A stretch of 64,000 nt of DNA from Octopus vulgaris (taxonomy: Eukaryota). Positions 2,632-52,786 of the stretch are shown piece by piece. The position numbers were made by a program, and so were the translations under genes. Below the pieces are notes generated by a model. The model did no database searches, was not told where the DNA came from, and saw nothing but the letters and a program-made list of their open reading frames with translations. The first letter of the stretch is position 1, and every line of letters starts with the position of its first letter. The stretch covers positions 60,202,001-60,266,000 of the forward strand of contig OX597828.1 of NCBI GenBank assembly GCA_951406725.2, in the 5' to 3' direction.

Positions 2632-2677
2632 AAAACTGTTACTCAGAGTTTCATGTTCCCGTTCGTCAGGCAGTTTT
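2632..2677 (-). ncRNA. Minimal type-I hammerhead ribozyme (slightly degenerate)
   Basis: Minus strand reads AAAACTG-C-CTGACGA-ACGGGAACAT-GAAA-CTCTGAG-TA-ACAGTTTT: stem I, CUGANGA core, short stem II (ACG/CAT, imperfect), GAAA, stem III, GUA site; stem I closing pair is mismatched. Confidence 0.6.
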
Positions 2678-2684
2678 GTTTAGA

Positions 2685-2715
<31 letters not shown>

Positions 2716-2771
2716 CATATATACATATATATACTTTGTGATGGCATAAATATAAATATATATATATATAT

Positions 2772-2830
<59 letters not shown>

Positions 2831-4143
2831 ATCAATAATTAGTATTTAATGTGTCCTTCTTTTGCTTTTATAACTGCTTTTATGCATTTTTGCATACTTG
2901 AGACTAAGGTGGCGCAAGTGACTGAATCAATTTTTTACCACTCTTCATGAATTTTGGCTACTAATTCACTTTTTGAAGACAGTATAATAAACATATAAAA
3001 TTTGTACAAGTGTCAGAATTTCAATTATGCATAGTAAAGTGGTGGAAATGAATGGGATGTTATCATTGAAAATTTTAGCTAAGGAAGGTTGATAAACTTG
3101 ATCTAACATGTTGGTGTAAATGTTAAAATTCATTCTGCCCTCATATGTGAACATTCCTGGGCCTGAAGATGACATACAACTCCAAACTATTATGCTTTCT
3201 CCTCCAAATTTCCCCAACTTTATGGCAAACATAAACAGCTGCAGGTGTTCCAAAGATCTGAGCAGAAAAAGATTTACTGCTTATTTCTGGTATCCAATAA
3301 AAAATTTGTACAAGTGTAAGAATTTCAATTACGCATAGTAAAGTGGTGGAAATGAATGTGGAGAACCTACATCAAAGTTACTTTCATCAGACCAAACAAC
3401 TTTACACCAATCATCATCAGTCCAATCTTCATGCTCTTTTACCCCAAACAATTGCTTTTTTTTCATGTTCACCTCACACAGCAACAGCTTCTTTCTGGCC
3501 CTACATCCTTTGAGCCCGGCTTCTAATAACCTTCTTCTCACTGTGCAAGTTGATATATCCTTGTTTGTTGCTACCCAAAACTCAGCAGCTATGTCAGAAG
3601 AGGTATTTTTCCTATCTGCCAGAGATGTCCTCTTCAGCAACCTGTCTTCCCTCATGGTTGTACACCTTTGCAACCTTGTCCTTTACAGTTTTTGAAAGAA
3701 TTGGTCTCATTGTACCTTTTGAGGGACCTTTTCTTGAGCATTTCAGTTGTCTTGCAATTTCAACTTGTGTGAATCCTTCACTGGGTAATGCAATGATTTG
3801 AGTCCTTTCAGCTTCAGAAATCTATTTCTTCGGATACATTTTCAACAAATATTAACCACTGATAATTTATCAATGAGATATTCACTGAAAAAATGATGGC
3901 AAAAAACGTTTCTGTCACACAATGATTGGCAGAAAATTGACCCAGCCACTTGTGCCAACTTAGTCTCAAGTATGCAAAAACACATTAAAGCAGTTATAAA
4001 AGTAAAAAGAGGACATATTAAATATAATATTGATAATTATTGATAGGATAGACTCTAGAATATTTATTTACTGTTTTCAATTATTGAGTTTCAATTATAT
4101 TATCTATTTTTTCCTACCTGTTCCATAATTATAGCCAGGGCTG
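2831..4143 (-). mobile_element. Tc1-family DNA transposon, defective, intron-containing, with long inverted repeats
   Basis: Minus ORFs give HTH, TVRRRLLEAGLKGCRARKK, VVWSDESNF and KFGGESIIVWSCM; about 110 bp inverted repeat 2831-2936 vs 3932-4044; right terminus ...ccataattatagccagggCTG|TA. Confidence 0.9.
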
Positions 4144-4146
4144 TAT

Positions 4147-4209
4147 AGATAACCGAAGAGATGGTGTTGTGGATTTCCACTTCGGCATCTGAAACTCAGA
4201 GTTTTATCT
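4147..4209 (+). ncRNA. Type-I hammerhead-like motif, variant core
   Basis: AGATAA-CCGAAGA-gatg..gtgg attt ccac..catc t-GAAA-CTCAGAG-TT-TTATCT: 6-bp stem I, U4C core variant, GUU site. Confidence 0.55.
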
Positions 4210-4305
4210 TGACTACCGAGTAATGTAACATATTGTATAGATAAATTTCCTCTATTTACATAATATTGAGGTCTCTTTCTTTCTTTTGTTATCTTACCGT
4301 TTTAT

Positions 4306-4354
<49 letters not shown>

Positions 4355-4430
4355 TATATATATTAAAAAAAAAACTGTATGCAAGCAACAATAAATCTCT
4401 GAACGAGATGTAAACAGTAATTGCACGACA

Positions 4431-4546
4431 ATGTAAGGTATACTAACCATCTCAAAAGCCAGCTGGAGACGATGATCTCCTGGGACTACAAGCTACAGTA
4501 ACACCCACCCTTAGTGGTTAGCTGTATTGAGATGGCTAGTATACCT

Positions 4547-4551
<5 letters not shown>
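4431..4551. repeat. Small foldback / MITE-like hairpin
   Basis: atgtaaggtatactaaccatctcaa (4431-4455) is the reverse complement of 4527-4551 with 1 mismatch. Confidence 0.75.
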
Positions 4552-4583
<32 letters not shown>

Positions 4584-4619
4584 AGGTATATGTGTACATA
4601 TATATATATATACATACGT

Positions 4620-7520: not shown

Positions 7521-7626
7521 AAGGATAAAGGCAACAGGATTGTTGCCTTCAGAACCTTGTTGCCAAGCAAGTGGCTGCTCAAAATTAACAAGAGAGAAAG
7601 AATACATACACACATTCACTCACTCT

Positions 7627-7667
<41 letters not shown>

Positions 7668-8283: not shown

Positions 8284-9003
8284 GCACGACCTTCGGACGT
8301 TAGGTCTCACCATGGAAATGACTAGAGACCGAGACCTATGGAAGTATGCTGTGCGTGAGAAGACCCGGCAAGACTAGTGAAGCCATAATCCGTGGCCCCT
8401 ACCTGGGACGTAGTCAGTCCACCTGTGCATACCTTCCTTCTTGTGACACTTGTGAAGACCTGTTGAGGCAAGTGAGAATCGAATCGAATCAAATCAAATC
8501 AAATCGAACCAAATCAAAATAGATGAACATCAATGGAATTTGTATCCTTGTGGTACCAGTGCCGGTGGCACATAAGAAAACCATCCGAACGTGACCGTAG
8601 CCAGTACCGCAACGACTGGCCTCCGTGCTGAGGGCACGTAACAAACACCATCTGAGCGTGGCCGTCCGCCAGCCTCGTCTGGCACCTGTGTCGGTGACAC
8701 ATAAGAAAACACCATCCGAGCATGGCCGTCAGCCAGCCTCGTCTGGCACCTGTGTCGGTGGCACATAAAAAACACCATCCGAGCGTGGCCGTCTGCCAGC
8801 CTCGTCTGGCACCTGTGTCGATGGCACATAAAATCACCCACTACACTCTCGGAGTGGTTGGCGTTAGGAAGGGCATCCAGCTGTAGAAACACTGCCAGAT
8901 CTGACTGGCCTGGTGCAGCCTTCGGGCTTGCCAGACCCCAGTTGAACCGTCCAACCCATGCTAGCATGGAAAGCGGACGTTAAACGATGATGATGATGAT
9001 GAT
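8284..9003 (+). mobile_element. Young 5'-truncated RTE LINE copy (ORF end, 3' UTR with ~58-bp tandem units, (GAT)n tail)
   Basis: Begins in the ORF end (KHDLRTLGLTMEMTRDRDLWKYAVREKTRQD*); (GAATC/AAATC)n microsatellite; 3-4 tandem units accatccgagcgtggccgt.gccagcctcgtctggcacctgtgtcggtggcacat; ends taaacgatgatgat. Confidence 0.9.
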
Positions 9004-10252
9004 GAGTCATCCCATAAATAATGCAGTTTTTTCAATTGCAGTTGAGGGGGGATGGAATAAACTGCCTGCATCAACTTGCTATAAAAGCAGGTATAATTTT
9101 ACCTTGTACTTATTCTTAGTGCAAGTTTTGAAGAGTACAGTTCTATTTTAACAGTTATTTTTTCAAAGCTATAATGGAAGTGACAAAGGCATATTTTGCT
9201 TTATGAGTTCAATAAAAGCAACAGAAAGTGTGAGGAATACTAATGCAGTAAATGAAGATTGGACAATAAGTGTAAGCCAGTTGTGCTTCTAGAAATTTCA
9301 AGTTGTAAACTACAGCCTAGAAGACGAGCCTTGTCCTGGAAGATCTGTCGAACTCAACGAGGACATGCTGCAAACTCTGGTGGAACAAAATCCCATCGTA
9401 ACCATTGAGGAACTAGCAAAGAAGCTTGGATCTGATCGTTCAACCATTCATCAATAGCTGCATGCTATTGTAAAAGTTAGAAAATTGGGTCAATAGGTTT
9501 GTCACAAACTTTCCGAGTCTAATTGCACACAGAGAGTGAATATGTGCTCTTCTTTGCAGTCATGTCTCATGAATGAACTTTTTTTGGACCGAATAGTGAC
9601 TGGTGACGAGAAATGGGTTCTCTATAAAGATATCAAGCACCAAAGACTGTGAGTAGGGAAAGGAGAAAGACCGGCACCCCAGGCTAAAGAAGGTCTTCCC
9701 CCACGTATGGTGTTGTTATCTGTTTGGTGGGATTTGAAAGGTTTAGTCCACTTTGAACTTTTAAACCCAAACCAAATGATAAGAAAGATCTACTGTGAGC
9801 AGCTTGAGTGGTTTAAATCAGTGGTAGAAGGAAAAATGACCATCTTTGGTTTCAAGACGAAAAGTGTTCTTCCATCAGGATAATGCTTGGCCACATACAG
9901 CAAGGATGACATTCCAAAGGCTGGAAAAGTTTGAATGGGAAACAATGCCCCAACCCTCCATATTTGCCAGACATTGCCCCATCTGATTATCATTTATTCC
10001 TCAGTCTTCAAAATCGTTTAGATGGAAAAAATATGAATTCTGTAGATGAGACAGAATAGTACGGAAGGAGTATTTTTCATCACATCACGGACAACTGAAT
10101 TGTGGAAGAGGGGCCTTGCAAGTCTACTGGATAGATGGAAGAGCATTGTAGAAAATGAAGGCGAGTATATTTTAAATAAAAAAAAAAGGACTTTATCTTA
10201 ATTTTGAAAAATAAAAGTATAAAATAACTGCATTATTAAAGAGATGACCCAA
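9003..10252 (+). mobile_element. mariner transposon, near full length, decayed
   Basis: TIRs gagtcatcccataaataatgcag ... ctgcattattaaagagatgacccaa|TA; motifs IVTGDEKWV, VLLSVWWD, FHQDNA, PDIAPSDYHLF. Confidence 0.9.
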
Positions 10253-10375: not shown

Positions 10376-11590
10376 CAGGGTGCAGTAAATGCATTGTTGT
10401 CTAAATTATGCAAAAATGAAACTAACACTGATATCTCATTTTTACAGAATTATTTATCAAAATTATGTTAAAATATCATGAGTTATTAAAGAGTATTCAA
10501 TAAAATTGCCAATGGCTTCAACCTTGGCCTCTAGACGACTTCAGAATCTCCTGCAACTGTTCTGAACAGTCTCCTTGTTTAAGTTGGCGAATTCAGCCAT
10601 AATCCTTGCCTTCAGTTCATCTTTAGTGTTACAAAGGTTTTTCTTGGTCTCTTGTTCAACTGTGCCCCATGCATAATAATCAGGGGGTTACAGTCTGGGG
10701 AGTTAGGTGGCCTTATGTTAGGGGTGATGTGGTCACAGAAATTGTCTGGTATCCATGACTGGATTCTCCTGCATGTGTTTGCCTGACATAGGGTCTTCCA
10801 GCAGCCACCATCTTAACCCAGGGTAGCACTACCTCCTCCAGGCACTTGATGTAAGCCTCCGTGTTGAGTCTGAGGCAGAAATTTTTCTCGTCTGAGAAAA
10901 ACCAAAGCATGTTCTGTTGGAGGGGACACTTGGTTTTGTTCAAAAGCTTTGTAGTGTGATCTTTCCTCTTGTCCTTGATGGCTTTGGATAAAAATTGGCC
11001 CTTTCTCATCTTGTATGAGGAATACCAAATGTCTTCAAACACTACCTGCCTGATGAGTAATTCAGACTCTCCCATGACCCTAGCAATGGACCTGATTGAC
11101 TTGGAGGGATCATTGTCAGTCATGGCCTGGATCTCACCAACAAATTCAGAAGTTCTTTTCTTATCAGAATGATCAGAGTGAGTTTTCTGAGCTGCCATAC
11201 CTTGTAATCACCATCAGACTCATCCAACTCTTTCCAAATCCTCTGCACTGTCCTCAGATTGACACCCAAACACTCTGAAATGTTCATATTGGAGCTTCCA
11301 GCATGAATGCCAAGCAGTACAGCATGGTCATTTGCAAATTTCTGGCAGAGTGAATTGTGTCATGGTACTGTTTTTCTCGCACGTGGTGCCCAACTGACCC
11401 TGCTATACTGTGTAGTTGACAAAATCAAAAACAAACAATGCACATGCACAAAAAGAAAAATATAAAATGGTGACAATTTACCCATCAATCAGGTCCATCG
11501 CCAGGTACATGGGAGTGTCTGAATTACTCATCAGCCAGGTAGTAAATGAAGACATTTGGTATTTCTCATACAAGATGAGAAAGGGCCTAT
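10376..11590 (-). mobile_element. maT/DD37D-like Tc1-mariner element, internally deleted, with adjacent inverted internal piece
   Basis: TA|CAGGGTG terminus; minus ORF FFSDEKNF and YIKCLEEVVLPW; PPNSPDCNP; 11484-11588 is an inverted copy of 10997-11100. Confidence 0.75.
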
Positions 11591-12689: not shown

Positions 12690-14950
12690 AGACTGTGTGT
12701 GAGAGAAACTCATGATGTCATAGACAAATGTGTCCGCATGGATGATGGTGCCCTTGCATTTAATGATTCTGCAAAGACAAAGGCTCGGAAATGCCATTAT
12801 GAAAGACTGCTGAATGTGGAGAATGAATAGGAGGAGGAGCGTCTGCCAAATGTTGACCCAACTGAGGGACCAGCTACCCGAATCAACAGTACCCTGGTAG
12901 ATAAAGCAATTAAGGATACAAAGACAGGGAAAGCCCCCAGCCCATCAGAAATCACTGCTGAGATGCTTAAAATATCTGTATTGTAAATCAGTTAGTTCAC
13001 AAAGGAGTCATACCCCAATGACTAGTATAGCAGCACTGTAGTCAACTGTTACAAAGGTAAAGGGTGATTCTTTAGATAGAAATAACTACTTGCTGAATCA
13101 GGTGATGGTCATGGAGATGTTCATAGCCCAATTAATTAGGGAGAGAATTAGCCTATATGAGATGCAGTTTGGTATTGTACCAGGTAGACACACCACTGAT
13201 GATATAGTTCTGGTAAGGCAACTGCAGGAGAAATATCTAGCCAAAGATAAACCTTTGTACTTGGCTTTTGTTGACTTGGAGAAAGCCTTTGACAGGGTCC
13301 CCCAATCCCTTACCTGGTGGTCAAGTGAAACCAGGGATAGTCAAGTGGTTGGTAAGAGCTGTACAAGCTCTGTACAAAGATGCTGTCAGTAAGGTGAGGG
13401 CTGGCAATGAGTATAGTGAAAAATTCCAGGGGTTCATCAACAATCAGTCCTCAGCCTCCTCTTATTCATCATAGTCCTCCAGGCAATAACAGAGAAATTC
13501 AAGACTGGCTGCCCTTGGGAGCTCCTCTATGCTGATGACCTTGCTCTAATAGTTGAGTAACTACCAGAACTAGAGATGAAGTTTCAAGTGTGAAAGCAAG
13601 GTCTAGAATCAAAGGGCCTTAGAGTCAATCTAACAAAAACCAAAACCCTAGTAAGTAGGAAGGCAGACAAATTACAAACTTCTTCAGGTAGATGGCCCTG
13701 CTTGATCTGTACAAAGGGGTAAGTAGAAACTCCGTAAGTTGTACCCGGTGTAAACTATGGTTGCATAAGAGGTGCAGCAATATCAAAGGAAGGTTAACCG
13801 GGAAGATAGTTTTTGTGTGTGGTAGATGCACAGGGGCAATAAATACCAAAGATGTACAGAAAACAGATTCCATCATATGCCAGGGGGTAGGGAACTACAA
13901 GTAGTTGATAGCTTCTGCTACCTAGGTGACCAAGTCTGTAGTGGGAGTAGATGCTCTGGGAGCATAGCCACTAGAATAAGAATAGCCTGGGCAAAGTTCA
14001 GAAAACTCTACCTCTGCTGGTAACAAGGGGCCTCTCGCTCAGAGTGAAAGGTAGACTGACGCATATGTGTGAACAGGCATGCTACATGGCAGTGATACCA
14101 TGGGCCATGTCTGTTGAGGACATATGTAGGCTTGAAAGAAGTGAAGCTAGTATGAATCACTGATTGTATAATGTTAGTGTGCATACACAGCAGAGTGTAA
14201 ACGCCCTCATAAGACATAAGAAACATCAGATGTGATGTGCAAGAGAGATGACTGCACTGTTATGGTCATGTGCTGCGTATGGAAGAGGAGAGCTGTCTGA
14301 AGAAGTGCCACACCCTAACAGTGGAAGGAACCTGTGGAAGAGGTAGACCCAGGAAGACATGGAATGAGGTGGTGATGCACAACCTTCAAACATTGGGCCT
14401 CACAGAGGCAATGACAAGAGATTGAGACCTTTAGAGATATACTGTGCTTGAGAGGCCCTGGCAAGTAAAGTGAGATCACAGCCATAGCTGATACCAGTGT
14501 TGCATAAACAGCCCATTTAAAAGTACCCTTGAATCGTTAGGCGATATGCTGTGTTTGAGAAGACCTATTGAGTCAAGTAAAGTCGAAAATTAAATTGGAA
14601 ATTGTAGTTGTGGCCAATGCCAGTGCCACCTGACTGACACCTATGATAAGCACCATTCAAGCATGGGTCAATGCCAGTGCTGCTTGACTGGCTCCTGTGC
14701 CAGCGACGTGTAAAAAACGCCATCTGAACATGGTCGATTGCCAGTGCTACCTGACTGGCTCCCATCCCGGTGGCATGTAAAAAGTACCCACTACATTCTC
14801 AGAGTGTTTGGCATTTGGAAGGGCATCCAGCTGTATAATTAATGCCAGATCAGATTGGAGCCTTGCGCAGCCTCCTGGCTTGCCAGTCCTCAGTCAAACT
14901 GTCCAACCCATGCCAGCATGGAAAACATACATTAAACGATGATGTGGAGG
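12690..14950 (+). mobile_element. RTE-clade LINE, 5'-truncated, decayed (RT, Cys-rich insert, 3' UTR)
   Basis: QFGIVPGRHTTDD, RQLQEKYL, LAFVDLEKAFDRVP, LLYADDL, VDSFCYLG, EGTCGRGRPRKTW; (GAT)n tail. Confidence 0.92.
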
Positions 14951-18200: not shown

Positions 18201-18610
18201 ATCATCATCATCATCATCATTTAACGTCCGCTTTCCATGCTAGCATGGGTTGGACGGTTCCAATGGGGTCTGAGGAGCCCGAAGGCTGCACCAGGCCAGT
18301 CAGATCTGGCAGTGTTTCTACAGCTGGATGCCCTTCCTAACGCCAACCACTCCGAGAGTGTAGTGGGTGATTTTATGTGCCACCGACACAGTGCCAGACG
18401 AGGCTGGCAGACGGCCACGCTCGGATGGTGTTTTTATGTGCCACCGACACAGGTGCCAGATGAGGCTGGCGAACGGCCATGATCGGATGGTGTTTGTTAC
18501 GTGCCCACAGCACGGAGGCCAGTCGATGCGGTACTGGCTACGGCCACGTTCAGATGGTTTTCTTGTATGCCACCGGCACTGGTACCACAAAGATACAAAT
18601 TCCATTGATA
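18201..18610 (-). mobile_element. RTE LINE 3' UTR fragment
   Basis: (ATC)n head then reverse complement of the 8520-9000 3' UTR. Confidence 0.9.
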
Positions 18611-18734
18611 TATATATTTATTAATAGATAAGTGTATTTTTACCTTGTTAACAATATTAATAGCGTTCTGTCTATTGCTATACAAATCCATCATTTTTTG
18701 CTAAAATGTCTTATTGACGAGTTTCGTTTTTTTC

Positions 18735-18820
18735 ACTTTCCTGAGGAGAAGATTGCATTGTTTATACCATTTATTCTTTTGAATAGTATCAGTGGAATTT
18801 TCGAAACATGTGTCGAAAGT
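18735..18820 (+). ncRNA. Type-I hammerhead ribozyme with extended stem II
   Basis: ACTTTC-CTGAGGA-gaagatt.cattg..tattc tttt gaata..cagtg.aattttc-GAAA-C-ATGT-G-TC-GAAAGT: 6-bp stem I, intact core, GUC site at 18812-18814. Confidence 0.8.
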
Positions 18821-18960
18821 AAAAATATTTGATTACACCTGCGTTAACTCCATTTTTTTATTCATATATATATATTTATTATAATATATATAATTGTTAT
18901 GTTTTGGTTTATGTTTTTCATTGTTATAGTGGTTTTATCTCTAATTTAAATTATATATAT

Positions 18961-20504
18961 ATCATCATCATCATCGTTTAACGTCCGCTTTCCATGCTAG
19001 CATGGGTTGGACGGTTCAACTGGGGTCTGGCAAGCCCAAAGGCTACACCAGGCCAGTCGGCAGAGTTTCTACAGCTGGATGCCCTTCCTAACGCCAACCA
19101 CTCCGTGAGCATAGTGGGTGCTTTTTATGCGCCACCGACACAGGTGCCAGATGAGGCTGGCGAACGGCCACGCTCGGATGTTGTTATTTTGTGCCACCGA
19201 CACAGGTGCCAGACGAAGCTGCCGAACGGCCACGCTCGGATGGTGTTTTTTACGTGCCACTGGCACAGAGGCCAGGCGAGGCTGGCACGGCCACGATCGG
19301 ATGGTGTTTGTTACGTGCCCACAGCACGGAGGCCAGTCGATGCGGTACTGGCTACAGCCACATTCGAATGGTTTTCTTATGTGCCACCGGCACTGGTACC
19401 ACAAAAATACAAATTCCATTGATGTTCATCGATTTTGATTTGATTTGATTTTCACTTGCCTCAACAGGACTTCACAAGTAGAGTTATGTGTCCCAAGAAG
19501 GAAGGTATGCACAGATGGACTGACTACGTCCCAGGTAGGGGCCATGGGTTATGGCCTCACGTGTCCTGCCGGGTCTTCTCGCGCACAGCATACTTCCAAA
19601 GGTCTCGGTCTCTGGTCATTTCCTCGGTGAGACCTAAAGCACGAAGGTCGTTCTTCACCACCTCATCCCAGGTTTTCCTGAGTCTACCTCTTCTACAGGT
19701 TCCCTCAACCGCTAGGGTGTGGCACTTTTTCACACAACTATCTTCATCCATTCTTACTACGTCTCCATACCAGCGTAGACGCCTCTCTTGCACACCACAT
19801 ATGATGCTTCTTAGGTTCAACTTTTCTCTCAAGGCACTTACACACTGTCGGGTATGAACACTGACATTACACATCCAATGGAGCATACTGGCTTCATTTC
19901 TTGCGAGCTTACGCATATCCTCAGCAGTCACGGCCCATGTTTCACTGCCATGTAGCATGGCTGTTCGCACACATGCGTCATACAGTCTGCCTTTTACTCT
20001 GAGCGAGAGGCCTTTTGTCACCAGCAGAGGTAAGAGCTCTCTGAACTTTGCCCAGGCTATTCTTACTCTAGCAGTTACACTTTCGGTACACCCACCTGCT
20101 TTATACTGACTCGGTCACCTAGGTAACGGAAACTATCAACTATTTCAAGTTTTTCTCCCTGGAATGTGGCGGAAGATGGTCTCTGCGCATTTTCAGTCTT
20201 TATTGAACCAGAGCATCTGCCACATACAAAAACTATCTTCCTAGTTAGCCTTCCTTTGACATTGCTGCACCTCTTATGTGTCCATAGCTTACACTTGGTG
20301 CATCTTATAGAGTTCCTACCTACGCCTTTTCTACAGATCAAGCAGGGCCATCTACCTGAAGGTATTCGAGATTTGTCTACCTTCCTACTTATTAGGACTT
20401 TGGTTTTAGCTAGATTGACTCTAAGGCCCTTCGATTCTAATCCTTGCTTCCACGCCTGAAACTTCACCTCGAGTTCTAATAGTGATTCAGCAATTTGAGC
20501 AAGG

Positions 20505-20505
<1 letters not shown>
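18961..20505 (-). mobile_element. Young RTE LINE, 5'-truncated
   Basis: Minus ORFs 20075-20560 and 19557-20021 (WKQGLESKGLRVNLAKTKV, Cys-rich insert, VDSFRYLG, MLHGSETW, LRWYG, GRLRKTW); 3' UTR tandem units and (GAT)n. Confidence 0.93.
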
Positions 20506-20555
<50 letters not shown>

Positions 20556-20581
20556 TACATACATATATTATATATATATAA

Positions 20582-20627
<46 letters not shown>

Positions 20628-20775
20628 CAAAAAGCAATAAAGATTCAAGTTAATTTAAATGAATTTACTTGAATATGGTACCTAACTTAGATGCACCAAA
20701 AAAACTATACTGATTTAACAATACAGTAATGTGGGGTGATTATAAGCGAGAATGAAGCAACAAGAATGGATAGGT

Positions 20776-20866: not shown

Positions 20867-21437
20867 TACATGTGAGTTCTCTAGACATCCTAGTGGTTGA
20901 GGCTAGTGGTGAAATCAAATAGCTACAGCCTCTTGTAAATAGCAGTAATCTGATTAATGTGACAAATACCTATTCATATAGCAAGATTTGATACCTACCT
21001 CATTGTGTTCAACCATTGATAAATTTATCGCCGGTGAATATGAAATTCCTTGAAATTTACACCTACACCATTGGAAATTGTGCATCTATACAAAGGATTA
21101 ACTCACCCTCTCTGTAATGCTAATAAGCAGGAATTGAAACCCACCTCGTTATAATTGACAATGGATAAATTTGCTTTCTGTGAGTATGTAACCCCTCATC
21201 ATATCTCTGGAAATTCATATGTGCACTGTGGATCGGGTCACCTTCTCTGTGATGCTATTAAGACTTTTTTGAAATTCTGTGATGCTATTAAGACTTTTTT
21301 GAAATTCTGTAATAAGACTGTAAATCATCTTTAAGGAACTTTAATGAACTTTTGAAATCTGTTTATGTTATTTAATTATCTACATTACTTCATGAGTATA
21401 GCCTCAACCACTAGGATGTCTAGAGAACTCACATGTA

Positions 21438-21528
21438 TTTTAGCTGATGAGTACGGGACATGTTTATATGCTGTAATTTTTGCAACTTTTAATAAAACCT
21501 GTCCTTGTATGAAACGATCGTACTAAAA
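21438..21528 (+). ncRNA. Type-I hammerhead ribozyme (right arm, sense to SHOC2 pre-mRNA)
   Basis: TTTTAG-CTGATGA-gtacgggaca..tgtccttgtat-GAAA-C-GATC-G-TA-CTAAAA: 6-bp stem I, canonical core, long stem II, palindromic GATC loop III, predicted cleavage after A21522. Confidence 0.88.
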
Positions 21529-21802
21529 ACCTATCCATTCTTGTTGCTTCATTCTCGCGTATATATATATATATATATATATCAACACACACACGCATAT
21601 ATATACCAGAGTAAGACCTTAAATGTGAAACAAAGTGGGAAAAAAAGTACTCTAGAGGTAGAGTAATATGCTTTATAAATAAAGCTGCAAATATATCACA
21701 AAGCCTGTTTCATGATCCCATTCTTAAAGAACAGGAATGTGAAATTCTGAGTAACAGTTTTATGTTATGTCTTTGCAATTTTGTTAATAAAGTGTGTGTG
21801 TG

Positions 21803-22329: not shown

Positions 22330-23650
22330 GTCATCATTATCATCATCATCATCATCATCATTTAACAGCATTTTTCATGCTGGCATAGGTTGGACAGTTT
22401 GATAGGTGCTGGTTAGATAAAAGGCTATGCTAAGTGCTACTGTCTACTTTGGCATGATTTCTACTGGTAGATGCCCATCTTAACACCACTCCTTTACAGA
22501 GTGCATTGGGTGTGTTTTACATGGCACCAGCAAAATCACCAAGTAACTTGCAAGACAAAAGATCCGTCCACTGGAAATGGGAGGAGTATTGTGCCAGGTG
22601 ATGAGAGGTTAAACCTGTGGAGGAAATATGTGGCTGTTCCAGTCAGAGAGAGAGAAAGAAAATGGTAGTGAAGGTGTGCCAAGGTGTACTCTCAAGATAC
22701 AAGGAGGTGAATGTAAGTGAAGTGGTACACAGGACTAGACAAGGTGAGTCAACAGGGAGTTCATAAGAGTGGAAGAGAAGGAAGGACAAGGGGGAGAAGG
22801 GGATGAAGTTAGTGGTGAACATAGAGCAATGATTCAGTTGGCAGGGAGAGGATGGGTGAGAGAGAGATGACAAAGTGGCACTGGGGAGCAGGGAAGTAAG
22901 AGAGATTGTAGTGCAAAATGAGATGATTGGTTCATTGGAAAGAGAATGAATGTAATTTGTGGATGGAGAACACCTAATACACAGCACTTCGCTGTTTCAA
23001 GTGATTGGTACTTCTTTACACAGCACTTTATTGTACAGCCATTGGGACAACCAGCTTCATTCCTCTCTAGTCTTAGCATGTCCTCTGTATTCAGGGTGCA
23101 CATTTCACTATCATGGAGCATAGATGTTTGTACATAAGCATCATACAATTTGCCTTTTACTCTGACAGAGAAATTTTCTGTTGCCATCAGAGATAATATC
23201 GTTGAACTGTCTCCATCCTATTTTCATTCCAGCAACTATACTTTCAGAACATCCTCCTCCACTGCCAATTTAGTCACTTTATAACAGAAGCTATCTACAA
23301 CCTCAAGGAAACTTGTTTGCATTTGAGAAAATCTAATTCTTGTGTCAATATTATCTATTGTTCATGTGCATCTGCTACAGGATTGGGAAGTGGGAGAAAA
23401 CCAGAGTGTATGAAGAGGAAATGTGAGGAAGAGAAGAGATGTAGTTTGGGTTCTTGGGGTAGGGTGTGTAAAAATGTTGTTGTTACATGGGGATGGAACA
23501 ACACTTCTAGAACTCAATTTTGCTGATGTGAGCAGGTCTTCTCTAAGACTCATATCGCCAGACATTTCGGTCCATTGTCATTTCCTCCATGAGCTCCAAC
23601 ATCATGAGATCAGTCCTCACCACTTAATCCCATGTCTTTCTGGGTTTCTC
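22330..23650 (-). mobile_element. Old RTE LINE fragments (RT end plus 3' UTR)
   Basis: Minus ORF 22834-23187 RVKGKLYDAYVQTSMLHDSE..EDMLRLERNEA; (ATC)n at 22330; second ORF-end/UTR piece at 23380-23650. Confidence 0.75.
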
Positions 23651-30699: not shown

Positions 30700-32290
30700 C
30701 TATGGACGATAAGGGAAATAAAAGAAGCCAGAGAAGAAGAAAGCTATGAAAATTCAGCAATGATCTTGTGGTATTTATGCAGGCATAGTATCAGAACTTT
30801 GTTACATTTGTTAATAATATTTCTAGTGCTTTGACTAAGTACAGGTTGCACTCACCCCCTCCTCCCACATATGGGAGTACAGTTCTCACCATTGACCAGA
30901 TTTCATATAGCACTTTCTTCAGTTTTATGTCCTATGATCAGCTCAGCCAAAGATGTAGACTTATGCTTACTAAAGTTCTTAAAAGAGTGGATGTGATTAT
31001 AGAATCTATGTTAAAATTGGGAAGATGTGGCTTCGATGTAGTGGAAAGTATTACTATAAGTAGTGACAGTGTCCCTGTAATCCATATTCTTCCTAAGCCA
31101 TTGGTTATCTAATGGACAGTTGGAAGGGATTCAAAAATTACATAACCCTGGAGAAGTTCAAATGAATGGAGTTTCATTTTAAGTCCCCAGTTCAACTGAA
31201 TTTCTTTCTGTGAATAGGTACCCTATGGTCCATTGCATGCTGCCTTTGAGAGCCATTATTGTGTTGGGCTGAACTAGGGTTAACAGGTTCAACCAGAAGA
31301 GCTATGCTGGGTCCTTATATATCTTAGGGTTCAGCTTTCTGTTATTTAGGGCAGCTAAATTTGGCACCAAGTTCGGTGTGGCTGAGTAGGATAACTTGAC
31401 ATTGTGTTGTTTGAATATTCTATGATATCTAAGTGTAGGGAGAAAACACTTATCAAGAGCCCTGACAAAGATGCCAGATTAATCAGTAGCAATGTTCAGT
31501 ATAGGGTGGTGGTGGTGGTGGTGGGGGTAAACCAAATTATATTCCTCTTGTGTAATTTGTTACTATGCTTCCTAGGTGGCAGATCTAAACACATCTGTTG
31601 ACTGTGTTAACTGAGGCTAGATATGCTCTTTCCCCCTAGGATGGGGTACCATAAGGTGTTGCTTAAGGTCTATTTTATTTAGGATCTTCGTTGCAGAATA
31701 CAGGTTTTGTAACCTACCGCCATGGTGGTCTATTTTAATGTTATTTGATGCATGGCTAAACCTAGTGCCCTCTAATTTAAATGACATCTAGAGGTGATTT
31801 GTAGAGAGAGCAAGTACGCCTCCCTGAGGCATATATAATATTTTCTCTGTTCTTAGCCCTGGCCAATGCTTCATTATAGTATTTGGCATTCTGCATGATG
31901 ATGTCACTGTTAGCAGACAGTCTCAGTATTCTAGTGGAGATACTATTTACTATCAATTTGATGACCACTCTAGGGTAATGAGGGTTTCTATTCACATACT
32001 GCAGATTTTCATGGGGTTTGTGACAAGCACTACACAAAACTATGTTTAGGTGCAATGTTACATCTAAGAAGTTTGTCACTCAAGTGTTCCTATCTATGGT
32101 AACAGCTAGTTCTCAGATACTGGAAAAAAAAAAAACTAATTCTTTTGCTTTTTCATTTTAGGTCTACTTTACTATATTTACAGAACGTGAACAGGGCATC
32201 ATCCCTCTATAAGTCCACCTCCTGTATCAGGAAAGACAGACTTAATTTGCTGTAATAAATACAACACTGCCAAGTCAGTAGATTGCATAT
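30700..32290 (-). mobile_element. Penelope-like element remnant (RT thumb plus GIY-YIG)
   Basis: Minus ORF 31777-32079 NFLDVTLHL..HKPHENLQYVN..ISTRILRLS..YYNEAL; RDDAL near 32200; YIEATSSQF.HRFYNHIHSF near 31000. Confidence 0.75.
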
Positions 32291-39769: not shown

Positions 39770-41570
39770 ACACCTGTCTCAAAAAGGATGTTAGGAAAAC
39801 TCAAAGACCCAGCAAACCAGCTGCAATTCAAAACATCTGATGAGAAGGATAGAACACAACTGGAAGGTTTTGTGGAGCAACTTCCTGAGGGCTACAGACC
39901 AAGGCTGTGGTTGATGCAAAGACCCATGGTGGTGGAACAAGGAGGTAGACAGTGCTATAAAAGCAAAGTGACAGGCTTGGAATGACTGGGAAAATGGTGG
40001 AAGCAGAAGTAAGAGATTTACATAGCAAAGGGAGAAGCAGCAAATAGATTTGCCAATGTTCTACTGCATAAGGATCAGAGATATGAGGTGTTCTGGATTG
40101 CAATCAGTGTATCAGAGAGAATAGAGACGTTATAGATGGAAAATGTGTGCAAATGGCTAATAGTATTCTTGCACTTAATGATTCTAAGAAAGAGGCATGG
40201 AAGTCCCACTATGAAAGGTTACTGAATGTGGAGAATGCATAGAAGGACAGTCATTTGAATATAGACCCAACTGAGGGACCAGTCATCAGAGTTGACAGCA
40301 GTACCCTGGTAGCTAAAGCAATTAAGGATATGGGCTAATTAAGGACTGAGATGCTTAAATATGTGGTGATGTAGGATATAGCCTTGTCACTGGTATAGTT
40401 AATCAGGTAATGCAGAAAAGTGTCATACTCAATGACTGGTGTAGAGCATTATAATCAACTGCTACAAGTGTGAAAGAAATACCTTAGAAACAGAGTGGTA
40501 TCAAACTGCGAGACTAGGTCACAAAAATTGCAGTGAGAATTGATTAGGAAAAGAGTAGACTAGATGAGATGCAGTTTGTGCCATAGTAGAGTGCTACAAC
40601 TACAGAAGTATCTAGCCAAAAGTAAACCATTGTACCCAGAGAAAGCTTTCAATAGAGTCCTTCACTCTATTATTTTGTGATCTTTAAGGAAATTAGGATT
40701 TGATGACTGGTTTCTTACAGCCATACAAACCATGTATAGGGGTCTTTCAGTAGATTGGCAGTCAGCCATGAATGGAGTGTACTTGAAAAAGTTCACCAGG
40801 GCTCTGCCTTCAGTTCCCTCAGAAATTCGTGACTGGCTGCCTGTGGGAACTACTATATACTGATAATCATGCTCTTATAGTAGAATCTATAGCAGAATTG
40901 GAAAAGAAATTCCATGTATGGATGTAAAACCTGGAATCAAATGACCTTAAAGTTAACTTAAGAAAGACCAAAGTTGTAGAAAGCAAATAAGACACTCTTT
41001 CTGTCAGGTAAATGGCTTTATTGAATGTGTAGGTAAGGTGTTGGAAGGAATTCCATTCAATGCACCTAGTGCAAGCTTTGGCCACATAAGGGGCATAATG
41101 GCATCACAAATAGCTCAACAGAGAAAGGAGACTATGTGGCAAATGCAATGCAATAAACTCTACTAAAGGCACACAGGAATTAAATTTTCTCAAATGCCCA
41201 GGAGGCTCCTTAGAAGTTGTAGATAGTTCTGTTACTTAGGTGACCAAATTAACAGTAGCAGTGGATGTTCTGAAAGTGTAGTTGCTAGAATAAGTATAGG
41301 ATGGAGAAAGTTCAGAGAGTTATTACATCTGTTGGCAATGAAAAGCTTCTCTCTCAGAGGGAAAGGCAAATTGTATGATCCTTGTGTACAGACGGCTATG
41401 CTCCACGGTAATGAGACATGGACTCTGAATGCAAAGGACATATGAAGACCAAAGAGAAATGAAGCTAGCATGATCCAATGGATGTGCATCATCAGTGTAC
41501 ATGTATGGCAAAGTGCAAAAGTGATGACAGAAAATTAGGCATAAGTGGAATCAGATGTAGCCTGTGATAA
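39770..41570 (+). mobile_element. Old RTE LINE, heavily decayed
   Basis: AWKSHYERLLNVENA, EKAFNRV, VVDSSCYLGD-like, MLHGNETW; homologous to 12690-14300. Confidence 0.8.
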
Positions 41571-45885: not shown

Positions 45886-47177
45886 CGAGGGGCGTTCAAT
45901 AAGTAATGCCCCTGACCCACTTCCCGTAGTAGTAGAGCAACGAAACTTGGCACAGTTATTAGTCTTTTTCTACATAGGAACCACCCAGAGTTACACATTT
46001 CTCCCCTCGTTTGATGCAGCTCTGGAGACCGTTTTTGTAGAAGACCCCAGCTTAGTCCTCCAACCACGACGTGACTTCAGAAATCAAGGCTGCATCATCT
46101 GGGAAACACTTTCCTTTCAAAAACAACTTCATGGATGGGAAGAGGTGAAAATCAGAGGGTGCAAGGTCAGGAGAGTAGGGGGATGGGGGAGGAGTTCATA
46201 GTCGCACGCCTGTGCTTCTGATCTGGCGACACGTGAGTTGTAGACCTGGAGTGTTGTACTGCAGGAGGAGGATGCCTTTGCTGATCTAGCCCCGCCTCTT
46301 GATTTTGATAGCTTCTCTTAATTGCCTCAAAAGTGAAGCATAATAGGCTCCTGTAATTGTGGTACCCTTTGCCAGGAAATCTGTCATCACTACTCCGTCC
46401 TGGTCCCAGAAGACTGTGAGCATGACCTTGCCAGCGAAGGGCTGAACCCTTGCCTTCTTTGGAGGAGGTGAGTCATGGTGCTTCCACTGCATTGACTGGG
46501 GTTTGATCTCTGGATCATAGTGATGGACCCAGGTTTCATCCTGTGTAATCAGTCTTTTGAAAAATTTTGACTCATCTTCTTGGCACATCTCCAAATTCAT
46601 CCTCGAGCACTCGACGCGTTCTTGCTTCTGGAAAGGTGTGAGCAACCTGGGAATCCATCTGGCAGACACCTTTTGCATATGCAAATGGTCATGAATGATA
46701 GTTTCCACAGACCTGGTACTAATCTTGACCTAATGGGCTATTTGGCGAATAGTTATGCGTCGATCTTCCAAAATGGCAACCTCAACTTAACGGACAAATG
46801 CCTCATGAATGGCAGAAGGGGGCGACCAGATCTGGGAGCTGTTTCCACAGAGTTCCGACCATGTTTGAATTCACGATGCCAGCGTTTTACAAGGTCATAT
46901 GATGGGGCATCATCACCATAAGTTACTTTCATTTCATCAAAAGTCTCCTGTGGTGTGCATCCTTTCAAATACAAAAACCGGATCACTGCTCGACACTCAA
47001 CAGGCTCCATTTCACATTTGGCTCAGTTCAAACACCTGTAAATCAGAAACCACAATTAGTTCAGAGCTGTAATTTGCCACTTAATCTATAGAGATATAAA
47101 TAATTGCACATGCAAAATTTCAGCTAGATCAAACAACTGCATGTTGGTCAGAGGCATTACTTATTGAACGTCCCTCG
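45886..47177 (-). mobile_element. Full-length mariner element (1292 bp), frameshifted transposase
   Basis: TA|CGAGGGGCGTTCAATAAGTAATGCC ... GGCATTACTTATTGAACGTCCCTCG|TA; ORFs MEPVECRAVIRFLYLKG, SARWIPRLL, ITQDETWVHHY, PYSPDLAPSDF. Confidence 0.95.
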
Positions 47178-47372: not shown

Positions 47373-47516
47373 TTATATTTTATAAACAATACACAATGCT
47401 TCAGGTGAACTGCAATACTCTCCTATATTATGTGTGTGTGTGTGTATATAATTATTTTCGTAATGTGATAAAAAAACCCAAGGCTGAGTAGATTTTAGAA
47501 CATTTATAGATAGAAG

Positions 47517-47568
47517 GTCTTACAGCTGTTTCCAGGATATTTATCAATTATATCCCTTCATCGGAGAC
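47517..47568 (-). ncRNA. Minimal type-I hammerhead, U4C core variant
   Basis: Minus GTCT-CCGATGA-agggatat..atatcctg-GAAA-C-AGCT-G-TA-AGAC; palindromic AGCT loop III. Confidence 0.7.
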
Positions 47569-47605
47569 GGTGTGAGAGGATGGTTAAGTCATAGTTAATT
47601 TATAT

Positions 47606-48107
47606 AACGAAGTACCAATATTTACTGGAAATAGCGAACGTAATAATACGACGCTAATGTATAGCTTCACCGCGTATGTACTAGCAAAAATGCGTGTGTG
47701 CAACAAACTAGAAAAAATTGTCTTACCTCCAGGGAGAACATCTGAAAGATGAAATACCTGGAAAAGAATAATGTGGGACCTGCGCAGGTTTCAGATTTTT
47801 CAAGATATGTCTGCCACCCATAAACTTGATCTATCTTCATCAGCTAAACATATACCACGACAACCTTTCAGATGTTACCACATTAATGCCATTACACTCG
47901 ACTGAAACGCCGAAACACTAACAGCACGAGAATGGTGAAGAAGTTTCAATAAATTAGTAATGCAATACTAGATATTCTCCCTGGAGGTAAGACAATTTTT
48001 TCTAGTTTGTTGCACACACGCATTTTTGCTAGTACATACGCGGTGAAGCTATACATTAGTGTTGTATTATTACGTTCGCTATTTCCAGTAAATATCGGTA
48101 CTTCGTT
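47606..48107. repeat. 133-bp inverted repeat enclosing a hammerhead-like motif
   Basis: 47606-47738 is the reverse complement of 47975-48107 with about 3 mismatches. Confidence 0.85.
47771..47850 (-). ncRNA. Hammerhead-like motif with fully palindromic stem III, weak stem I
   Basis: Minus CTGATGA-agat..caag..cttg..atct-GAAA-CCTGCGCAGG-TC; flanks tgtttag / ccaca pair poorly. Confidence 0.55.
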
Positions 48108-48827
48108 GTACCATATATTTACTTCTTTGTGCTTGCCACAGTAATGCAAACTCACTATAATGCTGAAGTGTATTAAACTATGAAAGACATGCCACCTCAC
48201 TTTAGCAAAGAAATGAGTGGCCAAAGTTTTATGGTTAATCCAGTGGCTACATCACAGAAGAAAAAGGATGGGGAGGAAGCTGAATTTGTGCAGCTCCTCC
48301 CCAAACTAAAATTGTAAGTACTAAGTTAGGGTGTATAAATGCACGTGACCTAGGGTCAAACTGGAAACAAACTTGTCTCTTTGATGACCTTAAGTCACTA
48401 GATCAACCATAGTAAAGCAGTACAGTGTAGCTGGTGGACCTCCCAGCCAAGGTTTAAACATTTTTAATTATATTGTTTAATTATATTTTAATATGTCATC
48501 ATATTTTTAAAACTCATTTATGAACACATTTTGTTTGTAATGTCCTCTATATCCGATATTTATTATCATAATAAAGAGTAAATCTTTAGCAGACAAGGTG
48601 TCCAGTACTAAGGAGTGGCAGAAACAGCCCAAAACTAGGACTGGTATGCTGGTTCCATTGCTAGTAGGGCTTCACTCTCCTGCTCACAATTTTATCAGAT
48701 GCAGTTGTGTATTGTTAACCAGCTAGAGGAGATGTCCTCTTAGGGTTAAAAAATTGTAGTAGAGTCTACTCAAATGGACAGCCATGTTAAAGTGGCTACA
48801 AATATTACTTAATATATATTTATATAT

Positions 48828-49820
48828 CATCATCATCAGTTAACGTCTGTCTTCCATGCATGCATAGTTAGAACAGTTAACAGGAGCCAGCCAGGTAGAA
48901 GACTACCCCAGGCTACTGTGTCTGTTTTGGCAGGGATTTTACAGTTGGATGCCCTTCCTAAAACCAGCCACTCTGCAGAGTGGGCTCAATGCTTTTTACA
49001 TGGCACTAGCACAGGCGAGGTTGGTTTTGACATGATTTTTACAGCTGGATGCCCTTCCAAATGGCCACCACTTTACAGTGTGGACTGGATGCTTTTTACA
49101 TGGCACCAGCACTAGCAGGGTCATCAAGTAACTCACAAGACAAGGAATTTTGTGAGGGGGAGGGGCATTTGTGTCAGATGATGAAAGGTTAGTGTGACAG
49201 AGAGACAGAAACAGGTATCTTGCTATATAGTAGGTACATGGTTGCCCAGAGAGAGAGAGAGAGGTACAAGAAAGAGGACAGAAATAGATGTGCTGATGTA
49301 AAGGAGATACTTGGTTACCTAGTCAGAGAGAAAAGCAAGAAAAAGAGAGAGAGAATGATCAAGAATGAGGGCAGAAACAAGTATGCCTCAGTAGAGGAGC
49401 TACATGGCTACTCACCCAGCGGGAAGAGCAAAGGAAAGAGAGAGAGAGTGGGAAATAGTAAAAGTGCAGAGAGAGCAGTAGATAGATGGTGAAGTACCAT
49501 GGTATACTCACAAGTAACAAGGATCAGAGCATAGATGTGATGGTATAGTAAGGAAGGGAGAAGTATGGAGGTCATAATATATGTGGTCAGGCATTGCTAA
49601 GAAGGCGCAAGAAAGGAGTGGGGATTGCAGTGACTGGCAAAATCCTGGGTATAAAAATGGGGTGGGGGAAAGCAGTGATACAGTGAACAAGGCAGTGAGG
49701 ACAGGGAGGGGGTGTGAGAGACAATCATAGTTTGTGTAGAGGAAATGTGAAGAAGAGAAAGACACAGTTTAAAAGAGATGTTTCTTGGGGTGAGATGAGT
49801 GAAAAATTTGTTGTTACATG
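48828..49820 (-). mobile_element. RTE 3' UTR remnant
   Basis: (CAT)n head, repeated acagctggatgcccttcc units; distal part homologous to window positions 1-440. Confidence 0.7.
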
Positions 49821-50249
49821 TGATTGTGACACATATATATTGGTAAAAAATATAAGGAGTGCATTGCATTACATAAATAATATTTCAAGGATTTAATAAA
49901 AACATAAATGTAAAATTTAACAAAACCATAACACATGAAAAATTTGTAGCTAATTCCTTGTCAATCAACATCCTAGAGATCATGATAGTTTCGTGCCGTT
50001 GTTGTTAAAACCATTCTCTCTTGGAGACACCAGTTGCAAAAATCCACTGGGAATAGCTAATGAATGTACAGGACAATGACGAAAACAAACGAGGCAAACA
50101 AATAATTATAATAATCATACATACATATATATATACACACACATATATATATATATATTTATATATATATATACATATTCTGCATATATATATATATATT
50201 TTTTTTTTTTTTCCTGATGAAGGCCATTTTATGGGGTTACCTGGGCTTC

Positions 50250-50694
50250 CCATCCACAAAGGATTTAGCAATTCAAGAGAAACATCCAGAATTGGCCAAC
50301 AGGAAGGGTATTGTTTTCCAACATGATAATGCAAGACCGCACGTTTCTTTGGGAACCAGACAAAAATTGCTGCAGCACGGCTGGGATGTGTTACCCCACC
50401 CTCCATATTCACCAAATATTGTTCCTTCAGATTTCAACTTATTCACATCTCTGCAGAATAGTCTTAATAGTAAAAATTTCAATTCCTTGGATCACGTAAA
50501 AAGATACCTTGATGAATTCTTTGCCATGAAACCACCTCAATTCTGGGAAGAGGGTATTTTCAAGTTAAAGGAAAGATGGAGACACATTGTGCAACAAAAT
50601 GGTTTATATTTGGTTGATTAAAAATGTAATGGCAAGTATTTATTGACCTTTTTCTTTCCTCTAAAAATCGATGCGAACTTTCCTGACAACCCAA
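50250..50694 (+). mobile_element. mariner 3' fragment
   Basis: ORF 50217-50621 FQHDNARPH..LPHPPYSPNIVPSDFNLF; TIR ..actttcctgacaacccaa|TA. Confidence 0.88.
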
Positions 50695-50715
50695 TATATA
50701 TAAATATATATATAT

Positions 50716-50947
50716 GGTGGCATGTAAAAAGCACCAATCCGATCATGGCCGTTGCCAGCCTCGCCTGGCACCTGTGCCAGCGGCACGAAAAAGGCACCCA
50801 CTACACTCAAGGAGTGGTTGCCATTAGGAAGGGCATCCAGCTGTAGAAACAATGCCAGATCAGACTGGATCCTGGTGCAGCCTTATGGCTTCCCAGATCC
50901 CGGTCAAACTGTCCAACCCATGCTAGCATGGAAAACGGATGTTAAAC

Positions 50948-50978
<31 letters not shown>

Positions 50979-50980
50979 CA
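50716..50980 (+). mobile_element. RTE 3' UTR fragment with (GAT)n tail
   Basis: One tandem unit plus the conserved terminal segment. Confidence 0.85.
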
Positions 50981-51099
50981 ACAACATCAACAGAGGCAGC
51001 TACAACAACAAATCAACAGCATCAGCAGCTACAACTACATCGACAGCAGCAGCAACAGTGGCAACAACAATAATAGGTACAGCACTGACATCACACATC

Positions 51100-51670
51100 C
51101 ACAAAAATATATTGGTTGTACTGGAAATTCATTCAAGAAATGATTTCCCAACCATTGATCCTCCTTCAGAGTCCCAGAAAGGAGATATGTTACATCGCTG
51201 GTTAACCACATTTAGCAACTAAAAGATCACAGAATTCCACAATTGATCTCATGGAAAATCCTCAGAAACCCAGGCCCCTACATCAACAGGATGAAATGCT
51301 GCAAGCTATGCATAGCCGAACATGCAAAAATCCTAAGGGACTCAATTGAGCCAAGTCTATAATTAACTCCAGAATGGAGATTTTGGGGCCATGTTTGCAC
51401 TTTAGGAGATTTCTGCTGGCCTTTTGGGAACTGCTGGAAACTGATAGCTAATGGGAGAGGGAGATAATCCCCGATTGTTTACTCTCACAGTTGAACAATG
51501 GCAGTACAGCCATTGGCAAAGGGAGATAATCCAGACGTTCCCCTCCATATTTTAAAGAGGTCGTAGGCCAACAAACCTTGGGCTTTGACGATACGCCATA
51601 AAGTTAAACCCTTTATGGACAGGAAACCCAGGGTAACCTCATAAAGTGGCCTTCACCAGGAAAAAATATA
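51100..51670 (+). mobile_element. Penelope-like GIY-YIG 3' remnant
   Basis: KYIGCTGNSFKK*FPNH*SSFR..TSLVNHI*QLKD..ISWKIL. Confidence 0.7.
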
Positions 51671-51807
51671 GACTGCGCTACTTCTTAGAGTGTGCTTCTC
51701 CAGATTTATGTTTTTCTAAAAATTATGTGTGTGTGTAGTGAGAATTTACAAAAAAACAAAAGACAAAGACAGGTGGGTAAACAACAAACAGATGTTATAT
51801 ATATATA

Positions 51808-51848
<41 letters not shown>

Positions 51849-52664
51849 GAGGTGTGCTTTGTTAAGAATGTATAAGAGTATAAATAGAGCTCATTCATCC
51901 TTAGAATTCCCAAATAGCCGGTAGTATTCTTATGGTATGCTACCAATTCTAGTCTAAGATATTCTCCTGTGTGTGAAAATAAAATTAAAAAGTAGAAGAG
52001 TCAAAAATGACCTTTGCCTTGAGGAAGCACTGAGTATTCTACTGAGTAATGAAAATCTAGGGAATAAACATGATGAGAAAATTCCAAGATGTAACCACTG
52101 TGCCAAATATGCATTTTCCAGATGGAACAATGTATAAATTATAATTATTATCATTCTATCTAGCTAAACCCATTTTTTACTGCCTTCACTTATGTATAAG
52201 AGTGTGTATTTATGATGGCGCATTCAACGATATAACTATGTACATGGAAATGAGTAGATAATTGTATAAGCATCTATGTATAGAAGTGAATGGGTTTATT
52301 GATATGTAGGTGAATATGCATCTGAATATATGAACATATATTTTATATATATATATGCATGTATGTGAGTGTATGTGTGTGTGTGTGTATGTCTGTGTAT
52401 TTATGGAAACACTCAGTGGTGTATGGTATATCAGTGTGTAAGTGATTGTATAAGTATGAGCTAATGGATGAATGTATTTTGCATAATGGAAGAGTTTGGC
52501 ATGTGCAGAATAACATGCTGAAACTGAATAAATAAACAGACAACGTTGCAGCTCATGTCAAATGTGATAACACACTCATACCGAGTGTTTGTTAGTTTCA
52601 AAGAAGAAGCCATGGATGTTGCAGCATGGAAATCTAGATTTACTTATGAAGACAGCAACTGAGT

Positions 52665-52786
52665 ATCGCCTGAGGAGATACATATAGATCTTCTTATACA
52701 GGTAAATCATTACATAATTTAATTTAATCTTAACTTTAAATCCTGTATATGCGAGGATCTGTATGTATCGAAATATTTGTAGCGAT
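52665..52786 (+). ncRNA. Type-I hammerhead ribozyme with very long stem II
   Basis: ATCGC-CTGAGGA-gatacatatagatcttc.tatacagg..cctgtata..gaggatctgtatgtatc-GAAA-T-ATTT-G-TA-GCGAT; stem III has a U-G pair. Confidence 0.78.

Follow-up and report, generated by a model that had tools for sequence, protein, structure and literature searches.

The eight hammerhead ribozyme motifs in a 64,000-nt stretch of the Octopus vulgaris genome (assembly GCA_951406725.2, contig OX597828.1, positions 60,202,001–60,266,000; hereafter the window) very probably derive from the activity of Penelope-like elements (PLEs). Seven of them would be the 3' ends of 5'-truncated coding PLEs that belong to, or stand beside, the Hydra clade, and the eighth would lie in a non-coding repeat of 431 nt that an enzyme of this type probably copied. 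Together the motifs represent seven insertions from seven interspersed repeat families, named here by motif position. Motifs 20776 and 21438 were rejected as separate events because they sit on two arms of a single insertion, a 165-nt arm with a tail and a 650-nt arm, which are 99% complementary. The features are listed below in window positions; hammerheads are predicted.

2603–2686 (−): F2632, 3' end of a Hydra-type PLE between (TA)n tracts; hammerhead 2677–2632, core start 2669, stem II 10 nt, mutated
4147–4308 (+): F4147, 3' end of a Hydra PLE with (TA)n at its end; hammerhead 4147–4209, core start 4153, stem II 31 nt
18618–18867 (+): F18735, 3' end of a Hydra-like PLE without the linker zinc finger; hammerhead 18735–18820, core start 18741, stem II 55 nt
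18618–18655: short inverted arm of F18735
20625–20905 (−): short inverted arm of F21438 (20741–20905) and 3' tail to (TA)n; hammerhead 20866–20776, core start 20860, stem II 60 nt
20912–21560 (+): long arm of F21438, final 650 nt of the 1.5-kb 3' untranslated region (UTR) of a Hydra PLE, with (TA)n at its end; hammerhead 21438–21528, core start 21444, stem II 60 nt
47429–47605 (−): F47517, 3' end of a Hydra-type PLE; hammerhead 47568–47517, core start 47564, stem II 25 nt
47606–47976 (−): F47771, most of a 431-nt non-coding retrozyme unit; hammerhead 47848–47772, core start 47843, stem II 44 nt, 12-nt palindromic stem III, stem I mutated in the window copy
47970–48130 (+): inverted second arm of F47771 (3' part of the unit)
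52002–52835 (+): F52665, 5'-truncated Hydra PLE, collinear with loci L091/L345; hammerhead 52665–52786, core start 52670, stem II 93 nt
52009–52137 (+): last 42 codons of the F52665 endonuclease in the window copy, with the second Cys of CxxC, the conserved E and N, and CxH

A first-pass annotation of the window had reported eight hammerheads with stem II of about 10 to about 93 nt, and each was recovered at its position and on its strand, with the measured stem lengths listed above. Two descriptors were used. The strict type I form required at least 4 bp in stem I, at least 3 bp in stem II and zero mismatches, and the relaxed form tolerated a single mismatch in each stem and, at the base of stem II, an offset of one base. 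Four motifs (cores 18741+, 20860−, 21444+ and 52670+) passed the strict descriptor, for which the shuffle means were 0.00–0.02 (100 local dinucleotide shuffles, five strict settings) and 0.04 (50 further shuffles); seven passed the relaxed one, with a shuffle mean of 0.32 and a maximum of 1 (50 shuffles). Chance matches in AT-rich DNA (the window has 36% G+C and is rich in (TA)n), for which a relaxed background of about 4.4 hits per 800 kb might speak, can be given practically no weight: the density is far above that of dinucleotide-shuffled sequence, every motif lies in a repeat family whose consensus folds, and we regard this explanation as refuted. Motif 47771 failed both descriptors because its stem I is changed in the window copy, but its family consensus pairs; the copy at 2632 likewise carries stem mutations relative to its own consensus. 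Rfam gave no match in the window at the gathering threshold, and at E≤10 no hammerhead was among the best 150 of 172 matches. In all seven family consensuses the core C-Y-G-A-N-G-A, GAAA and UH is present, and the three helices follow the type I arrangement. Each consensus also has a self-complementary stem III, perfectly so in three, as expected of hammerheads folding as dimers (PMC4209133). The core and a 3-bp stem I are intact in 23, 29, 29, 30, 26, 28 and 14 of 30 copies across the seven families. Judged from sequence, the eight are real type I hammerhead-shaped motifs.

The families are large. A first look returned 2019 candidate copies of F2632, 86 of F4147, 1916 of F18735, 1215 of F21438, 2855 of F47517, 736 of F47771 and 487 of F52665. 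For each family 40 candidates were scored and 30 fetched, which are the most window-like copies and not a random draw. F21438 and F18735 are very young (copies 99–100% identical), and F52665, F47517 and F2632 older (about 90–95% identity). Within each family the 3' end is constant and leads into either (TA)n or a constant tail; 5' truncation varies, and inverted second arms are frequent. A (TA)4+ tract fell within the tested 3' span in 23 (F2632), 28 (F4147), 17 (F18735), 16 (F21438), 15 (F47517), 26 (F47771) and 22 (F52665) of 30 copies, and an inverted arm lay upstream in 18, 21, 7, 14, 5, 14 and 8 of 30, respectively. In the window, five of eight motifs run into (TA)4+ at the element end, as compared with a background of 16% within 150 nt. 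Insertion is into (TA)n, which bears out the TA-microsatellite targeting suggested by the annotation. Elements also pile up in the same tracts: a fragment that matches the 3' part of F2632 (21729–21790) lies just past the (TA)n that closes the 21438 arm, and 47771 sits on 47517. At the end of the window, positions 61748–64000 form a TA/TATG microsatellite of more than 2.2 kb that continues beyond it.

For six families, which account for seven motifs, longer copies extend upstream into a frame with a reverse transcriptase (RT) and a GIY-YIG-type endonuclease. In F21438, the ribozyme is preceded by frames of 954, 882 and 766 codons that stop about 1.5 kb short of it (L031, L035 and L037). In F18735, 18 of 30 loci match the protein, and L352 holds a 2.8-kb ribozyme-ORF-ribozyme unit, that is, an open reading frame (ORF) between two pseudo-long terminal repeats (pLTRs), with an inverted arm in front. 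In F4147, the endonuclease ends about 200 nt upstream of the ribozyme (L135, L146, L343 and L344). Walking upstream from F2632 led to endonuclease and RT in L240/L347, with L240 collinear with L230, and in L351 the start of the ORF (RWK, DKT) stands behind an upstream ribozyme. The same walk from F47517 reached a decayed endonuclease about 1.1 kb upstream (L267/L348), which is common to inverted arms (L255, L266/L349); this putative link to a coding element is the weakest of the six. The annotation had taken the motifs for about seven unrelated families of non-autonomous elements. Seven families stand and the DNA around their ribozymes is unrelated, but six encode homologous proteins and are seen as 5'-truncated copies of coding elements; the non-autonomous description fits only 47771, which is non-coding. 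Most copies are indeed short and non-coding, and F47771 and a 359-nt tandem retrozyme array in L281 are of the kind expected if all seven families were retrozyme-like. However, six families lead upstream into Hydra-type frames, one of which is reached by the 52665 copy in the window itself, and a short head-to-tail unit was not seen for the six coding families. The upstream frames refute the non-autonomous explanation for F21438, F18735, F4147 and F52665, and as an account of all seven it is highly improbable.

We observed two further features. In F21438 (L031:3466–6327, L035:2052–6377), a long insert rich in Asn precedes the endonuclease and the 1.5-kb 3' UTR is rich in pyrimidines. Besides, additional decayed Hydra-type RT and endonuclease remnants occur in the window at 24383–24760(−), 30945–31151(−), 31804–32276(−) and 51108–51320(+), unlinked to the eight motifs.

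The encoded proteins carry the features described for the Hydra clade. The protein P0001 has RWK, DKT, YRDD, CxCx5C, IY-x10-YIG, CxxC, E, N and CxH; its first 26 residues were rejected as protein since they are the antisense of an inverted arm. This set of motifs is given as diagnostic of the clade in PMC8557442. A single ORF with RT followed by a C-terminal GIY-YIG domain was found as long frames in F21438, F18735 and F4147, and in pieces in F2632, F47517 and F52665. Both RWK and DKT are present in the N-terminal part of F21438 and F2632, and one copy of F18735 has DKT and RWL. The CxCx5C linker precedes the endonuclease in F21438, F4147, F52665 and F47517, and reads CNFx5C in one decayed copy of F2632. 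The C-terminal CxxC and CxH around the conserved E and N were also found, together with a hammerhead near the 3' end, (TA)n insertion, and pLTR, tail and inverted structures. A structural model of the F18735 protein (predicted local distance difference test, pLDDT, 72.7) matched the folds of reverse transcriptases, with telomerase at ranks 2 and 3, and its C-terminus resembled GIY-YIG clusters (0.93–0.96). A single-sequence fold of the endonuclease was discarded (pLDDT 41). These motifs suggest that the six families are members of, or next to, the Hydra clade.

How these elements may have reached the window can be outlined as follows. Read-through transcripts of tandem units would be cut by the hammerhead, probably as a dimer formed via stem III. 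The element's endonuclease would nick a (TA)n tract, the RT would copy from a fixed point downstream of the predicted cut, at a distance of about 37–190 nt, and priming a second time would give rise to the inverted arm. Early RT termination would leave mostly the ribozyme-bearing end, which could explain the high motif density. Because the copies hold an uncut ribozyme, and those of 47771 exceed one unit, the template would have to be either a multimer left uncut or a circle closed by re-ligation, in line with the proposal of PMC4209133.

Covariation supported the helices in one of two sets of relatives. Among six relatives of 21438 (five via homology), 92.5% of cells were paired and 6 pairs were double-changed, a level reached by 0 of 500 shuffles, with compensatory changes in all four helices. 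Several observations weigh against our interpretation and should be considered together. Eight relatives of 18735 gave only weak covariation (89.8% paired, 3 pairs, reached by 167 of 500 shuffles), so that the family covariation expected from the first-pass annotation was obtained for one set and weakly for the other; both alignments are small, hand-structured and made of related sequences. Unconstrained minimum free energy folds of the seven consensus regions mostly miss the hammerhead, and cleavage, transcript ends and a circle are predictions. Pfam found nothing in nine of nine frames, a sequence profile had zero matches against the PDB, and the top fold match of the F18735 model was the bacterial DRT2 RT, level with telomerase. 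The Hydra-clade assignment is by diagnostic motifs. The coding link of F47517 relies on decayed copies, and the RT pieces that lie antisense next to it in L350 and L355 are unlike one another and were not assigned to it. For F47771, no coding partner was found in 1.95 Mb of fetched sequence, which covers 30 of the 736 candidates and the chance copy L342.

Some of these points would also suit Hydra PLE ends whose hammerheads, especially the long-stem ones, have lost the ability to cut and now act as a structural mark where the RT binds or priming starts, or are carried along as passengers. The start of the copies lies downstream of the predicted cut rather than at it, free folds are often without the hammerhead, PLE hammerheads were reported to cleave poorly in vitro (PMC4209133), and ribozyme-less Naiads are successful (PMC8557442). 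On the other hand, the core and the self-complementary stem III are kept in seven otherwise unrelated families, and stems I–III show compensatory changes; a loss of cutting is rather unlikely.

F47771 differed from the other families in its organization. Its unit is 431 nt, and the longest frame in the doubled unit has 91 codons. In 21 of 30 copies the 3' end is followed directly by the 5' start, always at the same junction. L105 and L108 each have two hammerheads 431–433 nt apart, and the tail corresponds to the first 65 nt of the next unit. It has spread as 1 to 1.8 units with inverted arms, a tail and (TA)n targets. Contigs of four sets that we guess to be RNA cover pieces of the unit in L108:1050–2000, a region holding only part of the F47771 tandem plus an unrelated abundant repeat; ends, strand and circles are unreadable from contigs. 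A second short-unit element was found in L281:2100–4740 (G000:C1:20000001–20010000), where 359-nt units form a tandem array with seven minimal hammerheads (five on + and two on −), arranged in two back-to-back arms between (TA)n tracts. By the same sequence evidence, F47771 is taken as a non-coding retrozyme with the insertion footprint of the coding families, and the L281 array as a retrozyme with a PLE footprint. Alternatively, some coding PLE not seen here could have F47771 as its terminal repeat, or F47771 could be a DNA transposon (miniature inverted-repeat transposable element, MITE) with inverted ends: inverted arms flank the window copy, and the number of copies read was small. But copies differ in how long the inverted arm is and where it breaks, the junction is fixed, and no other upstream sequence appeared in the 1.95 Mb of fetched DNA, which makes either alternative improbable; the MITE interpretation of the inverted repeat at 47603–48110 was rejected. 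Mobilization of the F47771 retrozyme by a Hydra-type enzyme is likely. F47771 and L281 would thereby support the proposal, still indirect, that PLE enzymes mobilize retrozymes.

F18735 bears on the question of how these elements find their targets. The bias for microsatellites is described as unexplained in PMC8557442, where the linker zinc finger is proposed as the cause of (TA)n insertion. In F18735, no cysteine was found in the linker at nine independent loci, and the linker of a 50% identical relative in L152 is likewise without cysteine. Because the CxCx5C linker is absent, we filed F18735 as Hydra-like, on motif content, and not as a strict member of the clade. (TA)n nevertheless bounds all 30 copies, following the fixed 3' end in 17 and the tail in 13. 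The linker-less query is covered over its whole length, at 94–100% identity, by at least 150 copies in the genome (all 150 scored), and three of these have 778-codon frames. TA targeting by F18735 may instead depend on a linker-bearing enzyme used in trans. A literature search on linker-less TA-targeting elements brought up only PMC8557442, whose Fig. S7 could contain another such member. F18735 and the linker-bearing F21438 and F4147, for which apparently whole frames are present, offer a natural comparison for the finger proposal.

We then estimated the abundance of such motifs in the genome (2.8 Gb, 227 contigs) from 800 kb of sequence, taken as eighty 10-kb pieces placed at round coordinates on 29 contigs. 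The strict descriptor hit 19 times in this sample and never in any of 15 shuffles; the relaxed one hit 44 times, against a shuffle mean of 4.4. Of these, 7 strict and 7 relaxed hits came from the single L281 array. Extrapolation without this array gave about 42,000 strict and 114,000 relaxed motifs genome-wide, with wide error. The window is 2–4 times richer than the sample (Poisson P 0.017 and 0.03, uncorrected for the window's selection). The sample and the seven window families agree on a large and diverse ribozyme population, as the first-pass annotation had supposed. Outside the L281 array, 17 of 23 relaxed hits with a short palindromic stem III had a stem II of 46–78 nt, although the descriptor favors long stems (F2632 had 9 BLAST matches in the sample, few of which pass). 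Since hammerheads with a long stem II go undetected by Rfam and by descriptors that allow only a short spacer, the number of ribozymes in genomes of this type has probably been greatly underestimated. It is conceivable, if somewhat short of probable, that F18735 is a young, self-mobilizing family that lost the finger and still inserts only into (TA)n, such that the finger proposal is wrong for elements with a C-terminal endonuclease, and that hammerheads in this genome number about 100,000, many of them of a long-arm form that works and is missed by short-stem descriptors.

Other repeats were found in the window. An abundant element with internal 62–63-nt tandem repeats and a (CAT)n end is present at 8501–9005, 18201–18626, 18961–19479 and 52833–53607. 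At 54186–58279, 213-nt direct repeats, 91% identical and 3.9 kb apart, surround broken frames resembling gag, protease, RT and integrase, and by these motifs the whole is presumably a Ty3-like long terminal repeat (LTR) element. On the same basis, fragments at 13042–13392, 19557–20644, 22834–23217 and 41232–41534 are presumably RTE-type long interspersed element (LINE) reverse transcriptases, and those at 3329–3682, 10713–11207, 46286–46729 and 50115–50621 presumably Tc1/mariner transposases.

Hydra PLEs that carry hammerheads and target (TA)n are already in print, among them Hydra-1_Obim from Octopus bimaculoides (Craig et al. 2021, PMC8557442), and as early as 2014 truncated PLEs were found to leave behind a variety of hammerheads, single or inverted (Cervera and de la Peña, PMC4209133). 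The hammerheads were correctly assigned to the Penelope and retrozyme kind; "poorly catalogued" applies, as far as seen in these sources, to the present families and not to the kind. For O. vulgaris, 31 recently active Penelope-like families were reported (PMC13282606), and neither "ribozyme" nor "hammerhead" occurs in the main text of that paper or, by term search, in PMC8967140. The families resemble the Hydra clade of PMC8557442 in the C-terminal GIY-YIG-type domain and the RWK, DKT, CxCx5C, CxxC and CxH motifs, in a type I hammerhead near the 3' end with a short self-complementary stem III, and in (TA)n insertion, tails and inverted 5'-truncated arms. In contrast, none of the seven hammerheads matches the one listed for Hydra-1_Obim, by eye; stem II is 44–93 nt in four families versus about 12–26 nt in the listed Hydra motifs, counted by eye; F21438 (954+ codons and 1.5-kb 3' UTR) is longer than the stated <3 kb; and F18735 is without the linker motif. 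Long stems have a precedent, since the same file includes a 53-nt stem II in a plant PLE. Similar to the minimal hammerheads of metazoan PLEs (PMC4209133), many heterogeneous families occur in one genome, mostly as single motifs from truncated PLEs, with opposite-strand pairs 100–700 bp apart and predicted dimers, whereas helix II is longer here. The extrapolated number is far above the counts of about 4,000 in coelacanth and 9,000 in Xenopus given there, with different descriptors; more than 6,000 in Acropora and up to 120,000 in axolotl were also published (PMC7229834). With metazoan non-LTR retrozymes (Cervera and de la Peña 2020, PMC7229834; Li, Clavereau and Pollet 2026, bioRxiv 10.64898/2026.07.22.740005), F47771 and L281 share short, non-coding, head-to-tail units with one type I hammerhead per unit, but F47771 is dispersed with PLE-style arms, tail and (TA)n rather than in long arrays. 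Known biology accounts for most of what the window motifs show, here in a new setting of very high density, and the linker-less family, the long-stem form and the scale should be of interest to specialists.

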